A stretch of DNA of 64,000 nucleotides from Phycisphaera sp. (GCA_016125285.1 WGMA01000016.1:1-64000), one strand, 5' to 3'; shown: positions 160-22,349, counted from the first letter of the stretch. A program made the numbers and translations. The notes: a model not told the origin generated them from the letters alone.

Positions 160-1317
160 TCACTGGGCGAGCGCCTTCGCGGCGGCGGCGACGGCTGTGC
201 CCGGGGTGATCTTGACGCCCGCGGCGATGAGCTCGGCCTCGATCGCCATCATCGCCGCCAGCGTGTCGCCGGCGTCGACGTATCCCATGTGGTTCACGCG
301 GAAGATCTTGCCCTTCCACGAGGCGCCGCGGCCGTCCTGTCCGCCGGCGATCGCCATGGCGTGGTTGTCACGCACGGCGCCGCGGAACTTCGAGTCGTCG
401 ATGCCGTCGGGGTAGAAGGCGCCGGTGACCGAATCGCTGGGGCTGGTGGAGCAGAGCTTCAGGCCCATCGCGGTGAACGCGGCGCGTGTGGCGGCGGCGA
501 GCTTGGCGGTGCGGATCCAGATGTTGTCCAGGCCGATCGCCTCCATGGATTTCAGCGCGACGTTCTGTCCGCGGATCAGCGAGACGGGCGGGGTGAACGG
601 CACGTCGTTCTTCTCGTAGCTCTTGAGCCACTTGCGGAGGTCGAGGTTGTAGCAGGGCAGGCCGTCGGTCTGCTCGAGTCGGAGGATGGCGCGGTCGCCG
701 AGTCCGACGAAGCCGAGTCCGGGCGGCAGCATCATGGCCTTCTGCGATCCGGTGACGAGCACGTCGATTCCCCAGGCGTCCATCTCGACGGGCAGGGCGC
801 CGACGGCGGTGATGCCGTCGACGATGAGCAGGGCGTTGGACTGCTGGACGACCTTGGCGATCGCACGGATGTCGCTGTAGGTCGCGGTCGAGGTTTCGGA
901 GGCGACGATACAGACGACGCTGATGTCGGGGTTGTCCTTGAGGGCCTGCTCGATCTGCGCGGGGTCGACGGCGTCGCCCCACGGGACGTTGATCTTGATC
1001 TGCTCGACGCCGTAGGTGTCATAGACGTCCTGCCAGCGCTCGCCGAATTTGCCGCCGGAGATGGTCAGAGCCTTGCGACCGGGCTCGATGAGCGAGATCT
1101 GCGCGGCCTCGAAGGAGGTCGTGCCGGACCCGGCGATCGTCAGGACGGGCGACGACGTGCGGAACAGCTTCTTGAGGCCTTCGCTCATCTCTTTGTAGAT
1201 GGCCTGGAAGGCTTTGGTCCGGTGGTGAATGATGGGCTGAGCCATCTCGAGCAGCACGTCCGGCGGCACGTCGGTGGGCCCCGGGGTCATCACACGCTTC
1301 TTGAACAGCAAAGACAT
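160..1317 (-). CDS. Class V PLP-dependent aminotransferase (serine-pyruvate / alanine-glyoxylate aminotransferase-like)
   Basis: 385-aa ORF. N-terminal RVMTPGPTDVP and internal LVTGSQKAMMLPPGLG (SxQK PLP-lysine context) are typical of this family. GC3 is high. Confidence 0.85.
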   Translation of the reverse strand: MSLLFKKRVMTPGPTDVPPDVLLEMAQPIIHHRTKAFQAIYKEMSEGLKKLFRTSSPVLTIAGSGTTSFEAAQISLIEPGRKALTISGGKFGERWQDVYDTYGVEQIKINVPWGDAVDPAQIEQALKDNPDISVVCIVASETSTATYSDIRAIAKVVQQSNALLIVDGITAVGALPVEMDAWGIDVLVTGSQKAMMLPPGLGFVGLGDRAILRLEQTDGLPCYNLDLRKWLKSYEKNDVPFTPPVSLIRGQNVALKSMEAIGLDNIWIRTAKLAAATRAAFTAMGLKLCSTSPSDSVTGAFYPDGIDDSKFRGAVRDNHAMAIAGGQDGRGASWKGKIFRVNHMGYVDAGDTLAAMMAIEAELIAAGVKITPGTAVAAAAKALAQ

Positions 1318-1332
1318 CGTTTGATCCAGTAG

Positions 1333-1367
1333 TCAGGGTTCAGGGTTCAGGGTTCAGGGTTCAGCGT
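1333..1367. repeat. Tandem heptamer (TCAGGGT) x4 plus one degenerate copy
   Basis: Read directly: tcagggt tcagggt tcagggt tcagggt tcagcgt. It lies in the divergent intergenic region between the starts at 1317 (-) and 1429 (+). It contains GGG-N4-GGG-N4-GGG-N4-GGG at 1336-1359. Confidence 0.9.
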
Positions 1368-1428
1368 GGCGAGCACGCGGATCGGCCATCATAGTGTCCG
1401 TGGCGCGTCGATCAATGGCCGCGTTACA

Positions 1429-1788
1429 ATGCCGGGCATGGACGCCGACCGACCGAAACACGTGGACATCAAGAAGGACCGCGGGCTGACGCTGGAATGG
1501 CCCGACGGGTCGAGCAGCTTTTTTCCGGTGGCGTTCCTGCGCAAGCACAGTCCGTCGGCGGAGATGAAGAACCTGCGGGAGGAGATGGCGCGGAATCCCT
1601 TGACGGTGCTCCCGGCCTCGGCGGTGCACGACGGGCCGCTGACGATCACCGACGCCGAGCTGGTGGGTAACTACGCGATCCGGTTCCAGTTCTCCGACGG
1701 CCACGGCACGGGCATCTACTCGTGGGAGTACCTGCGGGAGATCGATCCGCACGAGCCGGGCGGCGGCGGGCCGAGCGGCGGGGCGTGA
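1429..1788 (+). CDS. DUF971 family protein (gamma-butyrobetaine hydroxylase-like N-terminal domain)
   Basis: ORF 1366-1788 trimmed to ATG 1429 (ATG 1438 is an alternative). LEWPDGSSSFFPVAFLRKHSPSAE and GNYAIRFQFSDGHGTGIYSWEYLR fit my recollection of the DUF971 pattern. Confidence 0.7.
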   Translation: MPGMDADRPKHVDIKKDRGLTLEWPDGSSSFFPVAFLRKHSPSAEMKNLREEMARNPLTVLPASAVHDGPLTITDAELVGNYAIRFQFSDGHGTGIYSWEYLREIDPHEPGGGGPSGGA

Positions 1789-1791
1789 TGA

Positions 1792-1913
1792 GGGAATTGC
1801 AAATTGCAGATTGGTCATTGCAAATTGCAAAGTGTCGGAGGGCCGCAGCCGTACGTTTGATCGCCGCCTCCAATGACCAATTTGAAATGTTCAATTTTCA
1901 ATTTGCAATTCCC
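1792..1913. repeat. AT-rich palindromic intergenic repeat, copy A (TTGCAAAT-type arms)
   Basis: Left end GGGAATTGCAAATTGCAGATTGGTCATTG. The reverse complement of the right end is GGGAATTGCAAATTGAAAATTGAACATTTCAAATTGGTCATTG. It starts 4 nt after the stop at 1788. G+C is far below that of the flanks. Confidence 0.85.
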
Positions 1914-1944
1914 TCGTGACTCGCGAGAGAGGTATGATCTCCCG

Positions 1945-2214
1945 ATGCCGACGATCGGGTTTACCGCCAACGTTGCGAAGTATGTCGACGTGTCGCCGCC
2001 GCGGCTGACGGGCGACACGGTGCGCGCGGCGCTGGAGGATCTGTTCGCGATCAACCCGAAGCTGCGCAGCTACGTGCTGGACGACCAGGGCGCGGTGCGC
2101 ACGCACGTGGTGGTGTTCGTCAACGGTGAAGCGATCGCGGACCGGGCGACGCTGAGCGAAGCGGTGAAGGACGATGACGAAATCTTCATCGCGCAGGCGC
2201 TGAGCGGGGGATAA
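1945..2214 (+). CDS. MoaD/ThiS-family ubiquitin-like sulfur-carrier protein
   Basis: ORF 1873-2214 trimmed to ATG 1945, because the upstream part lies inside repeat A. The 89-aa protein ends in the diagnostic C-terminal Gly-Gly (..IAQALSGG*). Confidence 0.75.
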   Translation: MPTIGFTANVAKYVDVSPPRLTGDTVRAALEDLFAINPKLRSYVLDDQGAVRTHVVVFVNGEAIADRATLSEAVKDDDEIFIAQALSGG

Positions 2215-2322
2215 GGAAATGCAAATTGAAAAATGCAAAATGCAAAATGCAAAATGTGCGCCCAGGTGCGGCGCGCATCCATTTTGCGATTTGCAATTCT
2301 CATTTTGCAATCTGCAATTTCC
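2215..2322. repeat. AT-rich palindromic intergenic repeat, copy B
   Basis: The left arm GGAAATGCAAATTGAAAAATGCAAAATGCAAAATGCAAAATG pairs imperfectly with the right arm (reverse complement GGAAATTGCAGATTGCAAAATGAGAATTGCAAATCGCAAAATGG). It starts immediately after the stop at 2214. Confidence 0.8.
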
Positions 2323-2343
2323 TCTTCAACGCGGAGTGTTCAC

Positions 2344-3435
2344 ATGATCCTCGTCGGCACCAGAAAGGGTTTGTTCTTCGTCGAAGACGGTCGCATCGCG
2401 TCGGTGCATTTTCCCGGCGTGCAGGTTCCGATGGTGCTGCGTGACCCGCGTGACGGGGCGATCTACGCGGCGCTGGATCACGGGCACTTCGGCGGCAAGC
2501 TGCACCGCAGTGACGACGAGGGCAAGACGTGGGAGGAGCTGACGCCGCCGACGTTTCCGCCGAAGCCGGACGACGTGGAGGACATCTATTGTCCGATGCG
2601 CAAGATCGTGATCCCGTGGTCGCTGAAGCTGACGTGGGAGCTGACGCCTGGCGGCGCGGACGAGCCGGGCGTGTTGTGGGCGGGCGTGATCCCGAGCGCG
2701 GTGTTCAAGTCGACCGACCGCGGCGCGACGTGGGAGTTGAATCGACCGCTGTGGGATCAGCCCGGGCGCGCGAAGTGGATGGGCGGCGGGTTCGACTACC
2801 CCGGCGTGCACTCGATCGCGGTCGATCCGGCGGACTCGAAGCACGTGACGATCGCGATCAGCAGCGGCGGCGTGTGGCAGACACGCGACGGCGGGGCGAC
2901 GTGGGCCGCGACGTCGACCGGCATGCACAACAGCTATTCGCCGCCCGGGCAGGAGGGCGAGCCCGAGGGGCAGGACCCGCACCGCATGGTCGTGTGCCCC
3001 GGCGATCCGAAGCGGGCGTGGGTGCAGCATCACTGCGGCATGTATCGCAGCGACGACGGGTGCGACACGTGGGTGGAGCTGAAGGACGTCGAGCCGTCGA
3101 CGTTCGGGTTCGCGGTGGCGGTGCACCCGACGGACGGCGACACGGCGTGGTTCGCGCCGGCGAAGAGCGACATGGAGCGCATGGCTGCGGACGCGCGGGT
3201 GGTGGTGGTCCGCACGCGCGACGGCGGCAAGTCGTTTGAGACGCTGACGAACGGCCTGCCGCAGGAGCACGCGTACGACCTGATCTTCCGGCACTGCCTC
3301 GACGTCGACTCGACCGGCGACCGGCTGGCGATGGGCTCGACGACCGGTTCACTGTGGACGAGCGACGACGGGGGCGACTCGTGGGCGACGGTGTCGGAGC
3401 ATCTGCCGCCGGTGTATTGCGTCAGATTTGGGTGA
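2344..3435 (+). CDS. BNR/Asp-box repeat beta-propeller protein (sialidase-fold / Ycf48-like)
   Basis: ORF trimmed to ATG 2344. Six Asp-box motifs are present: SDDEGKTW, STDRGATW, TRDGGATW, SDDGCDTW, TRDGGKSF and SDDGGDSW. Confidence 0.8.
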   Translation: MILVGTRKGLFFVEDGRIASVHFPGVQVPMVLRDPRDGAIYAALDHGHFGGKLHRSDDEGKTWEELTPPTFPPKPDDVEDIYCPMRKIVIPWSLKLTWELTPGGADEPGVLWAGVIPSAVFKSTDRGATWELNRPLWDQPGRAKWMGGGFDYPGVHSIAVDPADSKHVTIAISSGGVWQTRDGGATWAATSTGMHNSYSPPGQEGEPEGQDPHRMVVCPGDPKRAWVQHHCGMYRSDDGCDTWVELKDVEPSTFGFAVAVHPTDGDTAWFAPAKSDMERMAADARVVVVRTRDGGKSFETLTNGLPQEHAYDLIFRHCLDVDSTGDRLAMGSTTGSLWTSDDGGDSWATVSEHLPPVYCVRFG

Positions 3436-3453
3436 TAGCGGGCGCGTCGAGTA

Positions 3454-5063: not shown

Positions 5064-6137
5064 TTACGCCACGAGTTCTTCGGGGCGGTACTGCTCGAAC
5101 ATCTTCTTGTCCTGGGCCTTCATGTACGCGGCTTCGCCGGAGATGGTGCCGGCCTTGATGAGTTTCATCAGGCCCTGGTCCATCGTCTGCATGCCGTCAC
5201 GCGAGCCCATTTCGATCATCGACACGATCTTGGAGATGGCGCCGTCGCGGATCATCTGCGACATGCCTTCCTTGCGGACGAGGATCTCCTGGCAGGCGAC
5301 GCGGCCCTTGCCGTCGGCCTTGCGGAGCAGCTGCTGCGAGAAGATCGCGCGGACCGACTCGCTGAGCATCGTCCGGATCATGGGCTGCCGGCCGGAGGGG
5401 AACACGTCGATGATGCGGTCGATGGTCTTCGCGGCGGAGTTGGTGTGCAGCGTGCCGAACACGAGCAGGCCGAGCTCCGCGGCGGTCAGCGCGAGCGAGA
5501 TGGTCTCGAGGTCGCGCATCTCGCCGACGAGGATGACGTCGGGGTCTTCGCGGACGGCGGCGCGGAGGGCCTCGGCGAAGCCGTCGGTGTGCTGGCCGAC
5601 CTCGCGCTGCGTGATGACGGACTGCTGGTTCTCGTGCACGAATTCGATCGGGTCTTCGATGGTCACCACGTGCTTGGAGTATTCCTTGTTGACCTTGTCG
5701 ATGATGGCGGCGAGGGTCGTGGACTTGCCCGAGCCGGTCGGCCCGGTGACGAGGCAGAGGCCGGAGCGGTAGTGCGCGGCGTCGGCGATGGCGTCGGGCA
5801 GGCCGAGGTCCTGGCAGGTGAGGATCTTGTCGGGGATCTGACGGAAGACGGCGCCGTAGCCATGGACCTGCTTGAGGTAGTTGCAGCGGAAACGGGCGAC
5901 GCCCTCGAGGCCGTACGCGAAGTCGAGGTCGCCGGTCTTCTCGTACCGTTCCCAGAGGACCGGCTCGCAGATCTCGACGAGGTACGTGCGCAGCATGTCG
6001 CGCGTGAGGATGGGGTGTCCCTCGATGGGGTGCAGCTCGCCGTGCACGCGGACCTTGGCCGGCTGGCTCTGCAGCAGGTGCAGATCGCTGGCGCCGTTGG
6101 CTTTGACGTATCGGAACAGTTCGTCGATCTTGGCCAT
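5064..6137 (-). CDS. pilT: Type IV pilus retraction ATPase PilT
   Basis: 357 aa of canonical PilT size. It has Walker A GPTGSGKSTT, VTIEDPIEF, REDPDVILVGEMRD and GTLHTNSAAKTIDRIIDVFP. An RBS GAGAGG precedes the ATG. Confidence 0.9.
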   Translation of the reverse strand: MAKIDELFRYVKANGASDLHLLQSQPAKVRVHGELHPIEGHPILTRDMLRTYLVEICEPVLWERYEKTGDLDFAYGLEGVARFRCNYLKQVHGYGAVFRQIPDKILTCQDLGLPDAIADAAHYRSGLCLVTGPTGSGKSTTLAAIIDKVNKEYSKHVVTIEDPIEFVHENQQSVITQREVGQHTDGFAEALRAAVREDPDVILVGEMRDLETISLALTAAELGLLVFGTLHTNSAAKTIDRIIDVFPSGRQPMIRTMLSESVRAIFSQQLLRKADGKGRVACQEILVRKEGMSQMIRDGAISKIVSMIEMGSRDGMQTMDQGLMKLIKAGTISGEAAYMKAQDKKMFEQYRPEELVA

Positions 6138-18373: not shown

Positions 18374-18625
18374 GTGCGTTGGCTTTGTCGATTCCTGACC
18401 GTCACGATCATGATCCTGCTGTCGAGTGCGCCGCTTCTGGCGCAGGAACCGGGCAAGGGTGAACGCGTCGTGGTCGATAGCGGACTGGGCACCGGCGGCA
18501 AGGCCGCGCTGATCATCTTTATCATTCTCGGCATCGCCGTGGTCGTCATGGGGATTCTGCTGTGGACCAGCGGCCAGAGCCGGCGCACCCGCGCGATGAA
18601 CCGCACGGGTATCCGGCGGTATTGA
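18374..18625 (+). CDS. Small hypothetical membrane protein (signal peptide plus one TM)
   Basis: GTG start preceded by AAAGGGGG. The sequence has LLSSAPLLAQEP, then the TM segment AALIIFIILGIAVVVMGILLW and a basic tail. No homology was recognised. Confidence 0.45.
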   Translation: MRWLCRFLTVTIMILLSSAPLLAQEPGKGERVVVDSGLGTGGKAALIIFIILGIAVVVMGILLWTSGQSRRTRAMNRTGIRRY

Positions 18626-18741
18626 CTTCGCGGTCACGTCTCGCGGCGGCCCTTGCTGTACACCGCCGCCCGATTGTTAGAATATGTTGCACGTCCAAAC
18701 GCGTACGGGTCCCGTCTTTCAGCCCTGAGGCACCGCATCGC

Positions 18742-19092
18742 ATGATCCTCGTCGCCACCTACAGCTCGCGCTATTGCGTCGCGATCAAGAAGTTCGTCGA
18801 GGACCTCGGCTATCACGCCCTGGCCACGACCGACGGCGAGGACGCCTGGGAGATCTACCGCGGCCGAAAGAAGGAACTCGAACTCGCCATCCTCGACGCC
18901 AACCTCCCGCACAAGTCCGGCGTGTCCATCATGCAGGAGATCCGCGCCGGCGATCCCAAGTTTCCGATCATCCTGCTCTTCCGGTCCGAGCAGAAGCACT
19001 TCATCGAGGAAGAGAACGTCCACTGCCTCAACAACCCCGTCGACCGGGAAGTGCTGCGCGAGCTCGTCATCGAAACGACGATGTTCGGCTGA
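18742..19092 (+). CDS. Stand-alone receiver-like (REC) domain protein, atypical
   Basis: ORF 18562-19092 trimmed to ATG 18742. It has an alpha/beta receiver pattern with the acceptor context LAILDANLPHKSG. It lacks the N-terminal acidic pair (ILVATYSS) and the conserved Lys (CLNNP). Confidence 0.6.
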   Translation: MILVATYSSRYCVAIKKFVEDLGYHALATTDGEDAWEIYRGRKKELELAILDANLPHKSGVSIMQEIRAGDPKFPIILLFRSEQKHFIEEENVHCLNNPVDREVLRELVIETTMFG

Positions 19093-19104: not shown

Positions 19105-20487
<1,383 letters not shown>

Positions 20488-20521
20488 GGCCGCAGTATAA
20501 CTTCGCGATCCTCACGATGTG

Positions 20522-20551
20522 GTGAAATTCACTAGCATTAGTGAAAATCAC
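20522..20551. promoter_or_regulatory. Candidate enhancer (UAS): two copies of an 11-bp near-palindrome
   Basis: GTGAAATTCAC (20522-20532) and GTGAAAATCAC (20541-20551). They lie about 70-100 bp upstream of the -24/-12 element and just upstream of the divergent activator gene. Confidence 0.55.
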
Positions 20552-20620
20552 TATATCCTCCAGGACATTAGAAAATACGTATCTTTATTAAATAAAGAGC
20601 ATTATGCGTAATTTTGGCTC

Positions 20621-20636
20621 TGGCACGTCTGTTGCA
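20621..20636 (+). promoter_or_regulatory. Sigma-54 (RpoN) -24/-12 promoter
   Basis: cTGGCACGtctgTTGCAt: TGGCAC at 20621-20626, a 5-nt spacer, and TTGCA at 20632-20636. This is a near-perfect match to YTGGCACGrNNNTTGCW. It lies about 50 nt upstream of ATG 20686. Confidence 0.8.
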
Positions 20637-20685
20637 TTGTGATAGGCGGGGAGAGCGACGATCACTGGAAGAAAGGATCAGAGGG

Positions 20686-21051
20686 ATGCATAGCTCCCGC
20701 AAGATATCGGTACGCGACTGGCTCACGAGACTGGCCATCCTCGGCATCGTCAGCTTCATGGTGATTGGCGCCGAGCAGGTCACGCTTCAGTGGACCTACC
20801 CCACGACGCTCAGCGAGCTGGCCGTTCAGCAGCTCGAGGCGTCGAACGACGTCGCCGAGGCGATGCGTATCCAGAGCGACCTGCGGCACACGCTGACGAT
20901 GGTCTGCGAGTCGCTGGTCGTGGCGGTCGCGCTGGTCCTGTTCACCGGCCCCGTAGTGGCGCTGTTCCAGCGTCGCACCTCCGACGAAGGCGCAGGCGAT
21001 CGCGATGACGACGCCGACGCCGCCGCGCTCCGGCGCGCGCGGGGCGCCTGA
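20686..21051 (+). CDS. Small hypothetical membrane protein (two TM) with an acidic tail
   Basis: ORF 20614-21051 trimmed to ATG 20686, which follows GGAAGAAAGGA..GAGGG. TM segments are LAILGIVSFMVIGA and LVVAVALVLFTGPVVALF. Confidence 0.55.
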   Translation: MHSSRKISVRDWLTRLAILGIVSFMVIGAEQVTLQWTYPTTLSELAVQQLEASNDVAEAMRIQSDLRHTLTMVCESLVVAVALVLFTGPVVALFQRRTSDEGAGDRDDDADAAALRRARGA

Positions 21052-21171: not shown

Positions 21172-22224
21172 ATGACACGCCAAACACTCAAACTGCTCGT
21201 CACGCTCACGCTCGTCGCCGTCATGACCACCGGCTGCAAGCCGTACGATAAGCCCGAATTCGAGGAGATTGACACCTCGGAGACCGGCTTCCTCATCCCG
21301 CTCGAGGGCGACACGACCAAGCAACAGTCGTTCGAGTCGGAGACCTACCTCGACCAGCGCAAGGTCGCGGCCAAGCGCGTCGAGATCCCGCACCGCTGGG
21401 TGCAGACCGGCCGCGCGTGGTGGGCCGGTCAGTGGATGGACATGGTCCGCCTGGTGAAGGTCGACCGCTCGCCGGTGACGCGCGAGTGGACCGCCGAGGC
21501 GACCAGCGGCACGTCGAAGGCGAACCAGGCGATCTGGATCGAGTCGAAGGACTCGGTCGGCTTCAGCGTCGGGTTCAACTGCACGGCGTACATCCAGGAG
21601 CCCAACACGGCCAAGTTCCTCTACATGTACCGCAGCAAGTCGCTGGCCGACATGATGGACACCGAGGTGCGTGCGCGCATCCAGTCCGTCGCCGCGGAGG
21701 TCGCCGCGGAGTACGACCTCGACGAGCTCCGCTCCAAGAAGCAGGAGATCATCGACAAGGTCCGCACCGATGTCATCCCGTTCTTCGAGCAGCGTGGCAT
21801 CAGCATCACCACGATCGGCATGTTCGGCGGGTTCACCTACCAGAACGTCGCCATCCAGAACGCGATCGACGAGACGTTCGTCGCGCAGCAGCTGAAGGTC
21901 GTGGCCGACGCGAAGCTCAAGGCGCAGCTCAAGGAGAACGAGGTGATCGAGCTCGCCGCGAAGGCCGAGGCGAACAAGGCCGAGACGATCGCCACCGGCG
22001 AGGCCGCCGCGATCACGAAGGTCGCCGAGGCGACGTCCAAGGCGCAGAAGGACCCGCTGTTCATCCAGCTGCGACTGCTCGAGGTCGAGAACGCCCGCAT
22101 CGCCAAGTGGGACGGCAAGTACCCCGTCTACATGATGCAGCTCGGCCAAGGCGACACCCAGACCCAAGCGCCGCAGATGCTCCTGCAGCTTCCTCCTGTC
22201 AGCGCGACCAGCGTGTCCCGCTGA
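21172..22224 (+). CDS. SPFH/Band-7 (prohibitin-homology) domain lipoprotein
   Basis: Lipobox LVAVMTTGC. An SPFH-like core is followed by an Ala/Lys/Glu-rich coiled coil (AKLKAQLKENEVIELAAKAEANKAETIATGEAAAI). The RBS is GAAAGGA. Confidence 0.65.
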   Translation: MTRQTLKLLVTLTLVAVMTTGCKPYDKPEFEEIDTSETGFLIPLEGDTTKQQSFESETYLDQRKVAAKRVEIPHRWVQTGRAWWAGQWMDMVRLVKVDRSPVTREWTAEATSGTSKANQAIWIESKDSVGFSVGFNCTAYIQEPNTAKFLYMYRSKSLADMMDTEVRARIQSVAAEVAAEYDLDELRSKKQEIIDKVRTDVIPFFEQRGISITTIGMFGGFTYQNVAIQNAIDETFVAQQLKVVADAKLKAQLKENEVIELAAKAEANKAETIATGEAAAITKVAEATSKAQKDPLFIQLRLLEVENARIAKWDGKYPVYMMQLGQGDTQTQAPQMLLQLPPVSATSVSR

Positions 22225-22267
22225 CCGCGAGCCCGCCGCTCGCTTGAGAGCCCTTCCGGGGCTTTCG

Positions 22268-22299
22268 GGAGCCGACCGTTAAGTCGGTCGGCTCCTTTT
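22268..22299 (+). terminator. Rho-independent terminator
   Basis: GGAGCCGACCG-ttaagt-CGGTCGGCTCC, a perfect 11-bp stem, followed by TTTT. Confidence 0.85.
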
Positions 22300-22349
22300 G
22301 AGAAGTCGCAACCCTGTGGATCGATCAGTCGATCAGATTGGAGACACCG

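Follow-up and report, generated by a model that had tools for sequence, protein, structure and literature searches.

A PspF-type sigma-54 enhancer region as the probable control element of an SPFH lipoprotein operon in Planctomycetes

The 64,000-nucleotide stretch of Phycisphaera sp. DNA analysed in this study (GCA_016125285.1 WGMA01000016.1:1-64000, called the window below) contains a divergent gap of 198 bp (20488-20685), which separates the minus-strand start codon of a gene for an enhancer-binding protein (CAT at 20485-20487) from the ATG at 20686 of a two-gene operon encoding a small membrane protein and an SPFH lipoprotein. This gap is probably a PspF-type, enhancer-dependent sigma-54 control region of the SPFH operon, a reading to which a probability of about 0.82 is given. 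A first-pass annotation of this DNA had proposed that an enhancer-binding protein acts from tandem sites on the neighbouring divergent sigma-54 promoter, and the comparative evidence supports this. The sigma-54 interaction domain of the activator, with its GAFTGA loop, is intact and is accompanied by a Fis-type helix-turn-helix (HTH), the dyads and the -24/-12 element stand at fixed positions in orthologous loci with unconserved DNA between them, and the dyads are of the PspF type. As originally stated the finding is unsurprising because the design is a textbook one. What is new is that a PspF-type enhancer has been rewired to an SPFH operon in Planctomycetes, that a pseudo-receiver appears in the place of PspA control, and that the PspF-like activator alternates with a cyclic di-AMP (c-di-AMP) riboswitch.

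The gap has a GC content of 0.35-0.38 compared to about 0.67-0.70 in the flanking genes. The predicted sigma-54 promoter, TGGCACGTCTGTTGCA (20621-20636, plus strand), carries its GG (20622-20623) and GC (20634-20635) doublets exactly 10 nt apart within TGGCACG-N4-TTGCW, with a predicted start at about 20647. It agrees with the consensus TGGCACG-N4-TTGCA at 12 of 12 positions, which is expected in about 1 of 10,000 random 200-bp stretches of the DNA compiled for the analysis (P ~1e-4 per 200 bp), and it is the sole exact promoter match within the window. The shorter pattern TGGCAC-N5-TTGC was found once on both strands of the window when 0.19 occurrences were expected. The element had been annotated earlier as a near-consensus -24/-12 sequence, cTGGCACGtctgTTGCAt at 20620-20637, and it withstood this analysis. 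When 20400-20800 was re-read, every coordinate in the first-pass annotation was found to be exact, including the activator start (20487), the repeat cores, the palindrome, the promoter element and the ATG at 20686. The -12 element lies 50 nt from this ATG, and 8 nt before the ATG is a likely ribosome-binding site, AAAGGA (20672-20677, plus strand), with counterparts in the orthologs (AAGGAG or AAAGGAGG) at a similar distance. A search for structured RNA in the gap or leader gave no Rfam match at E<=1.

Two 15-bp dyads that could serve as activator sites lie upstream of the promoter. Site 1, TGGTGAAATTCACTA (20520-20534), is centred at about -120 from the predicted start and contains the core GTGAAATTCAC (20522-20532), and site 2, TAGTGAAAATCACTA (20539-20553), is a perfect 6-3-6 dyad centred at about -101 which contains the core GTGAAAATCAC (20541-20551). 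The dyads are 19 bp apart with N4 between them, share the core motif GTGAAAnTCAC, and were reported by a repeat finder as a joint 34-bp near-palindrome; the centre of the pair is at -110.5. The earlier description of tandem near-palindromes 19 bp apart was correct, and is refined here from 11-mers to 15-bp dyads. GTGAAANTCAC occurs 2 times in the window compared to 0.06 expected occurrences, a count reached in 0 of 100 shuffles, and site 2 is the best position-weight-matrix match in the window (22.8 bits).

Loci for comparison came from genome and metagenome searches in which the SPFH protein was the query, and the contigs of the homologs were then compared. The layout is shared by 13 loci, namely the window, L001, L002, L005, L007 and L027-L034. 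In these 13 independent planctomycete loci, among them the complete Bremerella volcania genome and Blastopirellula sp. JC732, the activator gene is divergent from the small gene and the SPFH gene. The genes flanking this module differ in each of the 13 loci, which suggests that it is self-contained. No sensor kinase gene and no pspA gene was found within the conserved module. Both dyads are present beside the activator start in all 13 loci, and a GG-N10-GC promoter is present in all but L007. Positions T1, G5-A6 and A15 of the dyads are conserved. The centre of the dyad pair falls between -107.5 and -112.5 from the predicted start in 12 loci, and in L002 it falls at -121, one helical turn further. 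The length of the spacer between the dyads and the promoter is 64-69 bp in 12 of the 13 loci and 78 bp in L002, and its sequence is unconserved. From the GG-N10-GC element to the activator start there are 122-133 bp in 11 loci and 101 bp in L032. When the loci were aligned, conserved columns were found only in the dyads and the -24/-12 element. A simple-identity profile of 15-mers peaked exactly on these same elements; because just 1 position in this profile passed the family-wise threshold, the fixed-position tests were relied on instead. At SPFH loci without an adjacent activator, promoter matches were at chance level.

The gene for the enhancer-binding protein (19105-20487, minus strand) encodes 460 aa with the Pfam domains Sigma54_activat (1.7e-62), AAA_lid_14 and HTH_8, the Fis-type HTH. 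The GAFTGA loop that contacts sigma-54 is present in the window activator and does not vary among 10 orthologs. The AAA+ domain follows an N-terminal region of about 150 residues, which the orthologs have conserved; in the window activator its Response_reg score of 19 bits is under the cut-off of 30.2. In the alignment, 9 of 10 orthologs have Glu, Pro or Arg where the phospho-acceptor would be: Glu in the window, L001, L002 and L005, and Pro or Arg in five Pirellulales loci. L032 alone has Asp there; the conserved phospho-acceptor Asp that defines NtrC-family receivers is therefore absent from the window activator. The top NCBIfam match of the activator is PspF (TIGR02974) at 348 bits, under the cut-off of 443.55, and the identity to E. 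coli PspF over the AAA+ and HTH regions is 42%. An exact-sequence look-up of the activator found no record.

Since PspF was the best NCBIfam match of the activator, the gap was compared with the pspF-pspA gap of E. coli K-12, which reads TGATGAAATTCGCCA-N5-TAGTGTAATTCGCTA at its activator sites. The layout is divergent in both, and in both the dyad sites adjoin the activator's own start. Site 1 of the window has 12 of 15 positions in common with TGATGAAATTCGCCA, and site 2 has 12 of 15 in common with TAGTGTAATTCGCTA. The geometry is also very similar, with the E. coli sites spaced 20 bp apart compared to 19 bp in the window, centred at about -119 and -99 compared to -120 and -101, with a pair centre at about -109 compared to -110.5. 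The spacer to the -24 element is 65 bp in E. coli and 67 bp in the window, and the distance from the -12 element to the ATG is 52 nt and 50 nt, respectively. The recognition helix of PspF, LGLTYHQFR, is identical to that of the window activator. When a weight matrix built only from planctomycete sites was applied to E. coli DNA, the pspA site ranked first in the 2.4-kb psp locus and the pspG site ranked first among ~50,000 positions in 25 kb. The pspG site, TAGTCAAATTCACCA, is a 15-bp dyad of the same type; however, pspG has one full dyad, nearer to the promoter (centre ~-86), a perfect consensus for integration host factor (IHF), AATCAATAGATTA, and no adjacent activator gene.

There are also clear differences from the E. 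coli pspA system. The E. coli targets are pspABCDE, whereas in the window they are the genes of a small membrane protein and of an SPFH lipoprotein. E. coli PspF does not have the ~150-aa N-terminal pseudo-receiver of the window activator, and its Trp56, the residue on which PspA docks, corresponds to Pro207 of the window activator; none of the orthologs has Trp at that position. The -12 element is TTGTA in E. coli and TTGCA in the window, and the window spacer is without an IHF consensus. With a pseudo-receiver, no Trp56, a score below the PspF cut-off and no pspA, the window system is, judging from sequence, not a canonical Psp system. In E. coli, two upstream activating sequences at pspA and one at pspG, IHF-assisted looping, and pspF autorepression via the same enhancer have been described, and PspF W56 is required for PspA binding (PMC3709507). 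According to a survey of Psp systems, the pspF||pspABC arrangement occurs only among Proteobacteria, Nitrospirae and certain spirochaetes; Planctomycetes go unmentioned there, and Band 7 proteins are connected with PspA instead of PspF (PMC11237479).

The mechanism suggested by this arrangement is as follows. The C-terminal HTH of the activator would bind the two dyads centred at about -120 and -101, and the bound activator would assemble into an AAA+ ring. By DNA looping, this ring could reach over the 67-bp spacer to an RNA polymerase-sigma-54 complex at 20621-20636, where ATP hydrolysis would open the promoter. Transcription from about 20647 would then give a two-gene mRNA for the small membrane protein and the SPFH lipoprotein, which would end at a hairpin near 22296. 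By analogy with PspF in E. coli, the activator at the dyads probably also represses its own gene.

Several observations weigh against an enhancer-dependent control region of the PspF type. The E. coli 15-mers are taken by us to be the footprinted PspF sites on the basis of their position. The outer half-sites of the dyads vary between clades, being TGAGAC in some and TRGYGA in others. A spacer of 67 bp normally requires a bending protein, yet this one has neither an IHF consensus nor a conserved intrinsic bend. The Pirellulales promoters match the consensus at just 8-10 of 12 positions, which alone is insignificant, although they are convincing because their position is fixed. Finally, no RpoN box was found within the 64-kb window. 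However, rpoN has been reported in Rhodopirellula baltica (PMC2754498) and sigma-54 promoters have been predicted for Planctomycetia and Phycisphaerae (PMC12316311), and on account of this phylum literature and the intact GAFTGA activator, rpoN is taken as present in the genome.

Two other explanations of the gap have to be considered. One is that the dyads serve mainly or only as an operator, whether for the promoter of the activator gene itself or for a different regulator, and not as an enhancer of the operon. The dyads are near the activator ATG, at 33-67 bp in the window, with a distance from pair centre to ATG that is 37-50 bp for most orthologs but shorter, at 20.5-34 bp, for L032 and L002, and sites of the same type repress pspF in E. 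coli (PMC3709507). However, the distance that is constant is the one from the dyad centre to the -24/-12 promoter (-107.5 to -112.5, or one helical turn more), whereas the distance to the activator ATG varies more (20-50 bp). Operator and enhancer roles are also compatible, as they co-exist in E. coli, and a scan of the gap that covered only the E. coli sigma-70 consensus detected no sigma-70-type promoter for either gene. This explanation is considered very unlikely. The limits of that same scan lend something to a second explanation, in which the -24/-12 match is fortuitous and the operon is transcribed from an unrecognised sigma-70-type or extracytoplasmic function (ECF)-type promoter in the AT-rich gap, since planctomycete housekeeping promoters are poorly defined; moreover, several ortholog promoters match at only 8-9 of 12 positions. 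Against this, the window element is a 12/12 match with P ~1e-4, GG-N10-GC is found at the same offset in 12 loci despite a fully diverged spacer, and the element co-occurs with a GAFTGA activator. It has also decayed in L007, the one locus where the activator gene has an internal deletion. There the activator (1233-1379, minus strand) consists of 15 N-terminal codons, a stop and an HTH-coding remnant of ~35 codons, and the -24 GG is now GA (CGACACTCTCTTTGCT, 1502-1517), with both dyads remaining; this may reflect either a natural knockout of recent date or an artefact of assembly. A fortuitous match is considered the least probable of the explanations considered, and the enhancer-dependent sigma-54 control region is preferred over both.

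The 67-bp AT-rich spacer (20554-20620), which separates the activator sites from the promoter and would form the loop, contains the palindrome TCTTTATTaAATAAAGA (20582-20598), which consists of perfect 8-bp arms, TCTTTATT-A-AATAAAGA, centred at about -57. When a 66-bp spacer was shuffled, 1.1% of the randomised sequences had an inverted repeat with perfect 8-bp arms, and the figure was 1.6% for the entire gap of 198 bp, so the earlier description of a perfect palindrome in an AT-rich stretch is accurate and its chance probability is P ~0.01. The same annotation read the palindrome as a bending or IHF-type site, and this part found no support in that form, because the palindrome is unconserved, its IHF match is at shuffle level and no conserved curvature was predicted. 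The palindrome may still be a specific site for an architectural protein of the IHF or HU type, which would bend the spacer in the way described for pspA of E. coli. A DNA loop of 67 bp is hard to close without a bend given the stiffness of DNA, the palindrome is improbable by chance, its centre is close to the position of the IHF-like site of E. coli pspA (~-54), the local sequence ATCTTTAT(T)AAAT is reminiscent of the E. coli pspA spacer, and the spacer is AT-enriched in most orthologs. However, the palindrome is unique to this genome and is kept in 0 of 12 orthologous loci, and its best match to the IHF consensus is 6 of 9 positions, which was equalled by 500 of 500 shuffles. A search for the IHF consensus WATCAANNNNTTR in the spacers of 12 loci gave nothing above shuffles. 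The AT-content profile across the orthologs shows a broad enrichment from -75 to -40 that is not universal, as the spacer of L034 is GC-rich. A heuristic dinucleotide wedge model gave no intrinsic bend above shuffles and none that was conserved, though this curvature result carries low weight. A specific architectural site at the palindrome is therefore regarded as doubtful.

The system can also be compared with other regulators and with other SPFH operons. NtrC-type systems such as glnAp2 share the order of receiver-like N-terminus, AAA+ domain and Fis-type HTH, as well as tandem dyads located ~100-140 bp upstream of a -24/-12 promoter. The differences are that the receiver of the window activator is degenerate, with Response_reg below its cut-off, that the conserved module has no sensor kinase gene, and that the site motif is PspF-like, whereas NtrC sites have the motif TGCACC-N5-GGTGCA. 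In Bacillus subtilis the sigmaW-dependent operon yuaFGI and the operon pspA-ydjGHI likewise place an SPFH protein and a small membrane partner under an envelope-stress regulator, and in pspA-ydjGHI the SPFH protein tethers PspA. Unlike these operons, the window has sigma-54 with a PspF-like activator in place of an ECF sigma factor, its SPFH protein is a lipoprotein, and its small partner is not a member of the NfeD family by Pfam. Stress regulation of Bacillus SPFH operons has been reported (PMC2636767).

A c-di-AMP riboswitch (RF00379, 53-67 bits compared to a gathering score of 38) was found upstream of, and on the same strand as, seven more distant small-gene/SPFH operons, all of them without a divergent activator. 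The riboswitches are located at 5402-5554 in L003, 3460-3624 in L011, 224-383 in L013, 1070-1222 in L015, 3362-3513 in L019, 3354-3505 in L021 and 32-183 in L022. Because RF00379 lies upstream of orthologous operons that have no activator, one operon appears to be under two unrelated regulators in different lineages. Riboswitches for c-di-AMP control osmotic and cell-envelope genes. Since the related operons are under such a riboswitch instead, the signal that induces the window operon would be envelope or osmotic stress, and our best guess is that the small-gene/SPFH operon has an envelope or osmotic role.

It is tentatively proposed that these elements together make up a planctomycete envelope-stress response that is independent of PspA, in which a PspF-like activator is gated by a pseudo-receiver independently of phosphorylation, the effectors are the SPFH lipoprotein and its membrane partner, and sister lineages have swapped the activator for a riboswitch. 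If this is true, the riboswitch swap would link this SPFH family to turgor and osmotic homeostasis, and the near-identical site motif and enhancer geometry would mean that the DNA-recognition module of PspF greatly predates the Psp operon and is much more widely distributed. Gammaproteobacteria and Planctomycetes have retained the recognition helix, the 15-bp site and the enhancer geometry in common, with different genes under their control. The alternation of two regulators is a natural experiment that hints at an envelope or osmotic function, and the assignment provides a testable regulon for a widespread and unstudied SPFH family. Bremerella volcania and Blastopirellula sp. JC732 are cultured carriers of the module, which makes experiments feasible.

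The product of the first gene of the operon (20686-21051, plus strand) is 121 aa long, has two hydrophobic segments and carries LAVRQ[FL]E.S as a conserved loop motif; it has no Pfam or NCBIfam family match, and it is conserved and co-linear in the orthologous loci. The second gene (21172-22224, plus strand) encodes a 350-aa SPFH/Band 7 lipoprotein with a signal peptide and the lipobox LVAVMTTGC. Its Pfam Band_7 score is 26.3 bits with a cut-off of 23.6, and at E<=1e-40 its homologs number 1380. An identical protein carries an annotation in a metagenome-assembled genome labelled 'Phycisphaera sp.'; a sequence search found no relative in the PDB. The first-pass annotation had called the regulated genes uncharacterised, which holds only in part, as the second one encodes an SPFH/Band 7 lipoprotein. 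Downstream is a terminator-like element (22267-22300, plus strand), a 12-bp G+C-rich hairpin followed by UUUU with a fold z-score of -3.95 for 22215-22345, which was missed by a consensus scan because it has only four U. This hairpin probably ends the two-gene transcript. The genes past it differ in every orthologous locus.

Some further matches and variants of the activator sites were found. A candidate third site in the window, AGCGACGATCACT (20654-20666), has 77% identity to the 13-nt repeat core and no counterpart at a matching position in the orthologs that were read, and was attributed to chance. The same was concluded for a matrix match at 5156, TGATGAAACTCATCA, which lies within a coding open reading frame (ORF; pilT-like by eye) with no promoter nearby. 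An additional dyad resembling the activator sites stands immediately before the -24 element, centred near -38, in L029 (GTGAAATTTCACTA, 3424-3437) and in L032 (ACGAAATTTCGT, 3029-3040), and this could be a third, possibly repressive, candidate binding site. The HTH sequence LGLTYHQFRHY in the window, L005 and L027 goes with internally palindromic 15-mers (GYGA-N3-TCRC), and LGLSYHQFRY[YF] in the remaining orthologs goes with outer half-sites of the TGAGA type. The HTH variant thus seems to track the site type, but the independent lineages are too few to call this co-variation. Between the small gene and the SPFH gene of two other loci, a sigma-54-like sequence with 2 mismatches, TGGCATTCAAGTTGCT, was detected on the minus strand (L009 1487, L010 3961); it is antisense and points away from the SPFH gene with no activator nearby, and was judged a probable chance match.

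The activator gene and its surroundings also vary. In L027 the activator (1460-2843, minus strand) is split over two frames, with the dyads and an 11/12 promoter intact; this is either a pseudogene or the product of indel errors, possibly from a long-read assembly. In the window, an ORF for a single-domain response regulator (18562-19092, plus strand; Response_reg 4e-10) is convergent with the activator gene, at whose 3' end it lies, and such an ORF adjoins the module in no other locus.

In five Pirellulales (L028, L029, L030, L031 and L033) the small protein and the SPFH lipoprotein are encoded by one frame of 453-462 aa (3501-~4870), in which the lipobox is internal, for example ATSTGC. This suggests a single precursor from which signal peptidase II could release two proteins. 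In L035 (1-8098), an SPFH gene with 60% identity follows a 92-aa ORF in a run of short same-strand genes with no activator. Among the genes of this run are those for a phage-type RNA ligase (PHA02142) and for a NUDIX protein, and the context looks like that of a phage or prophage.

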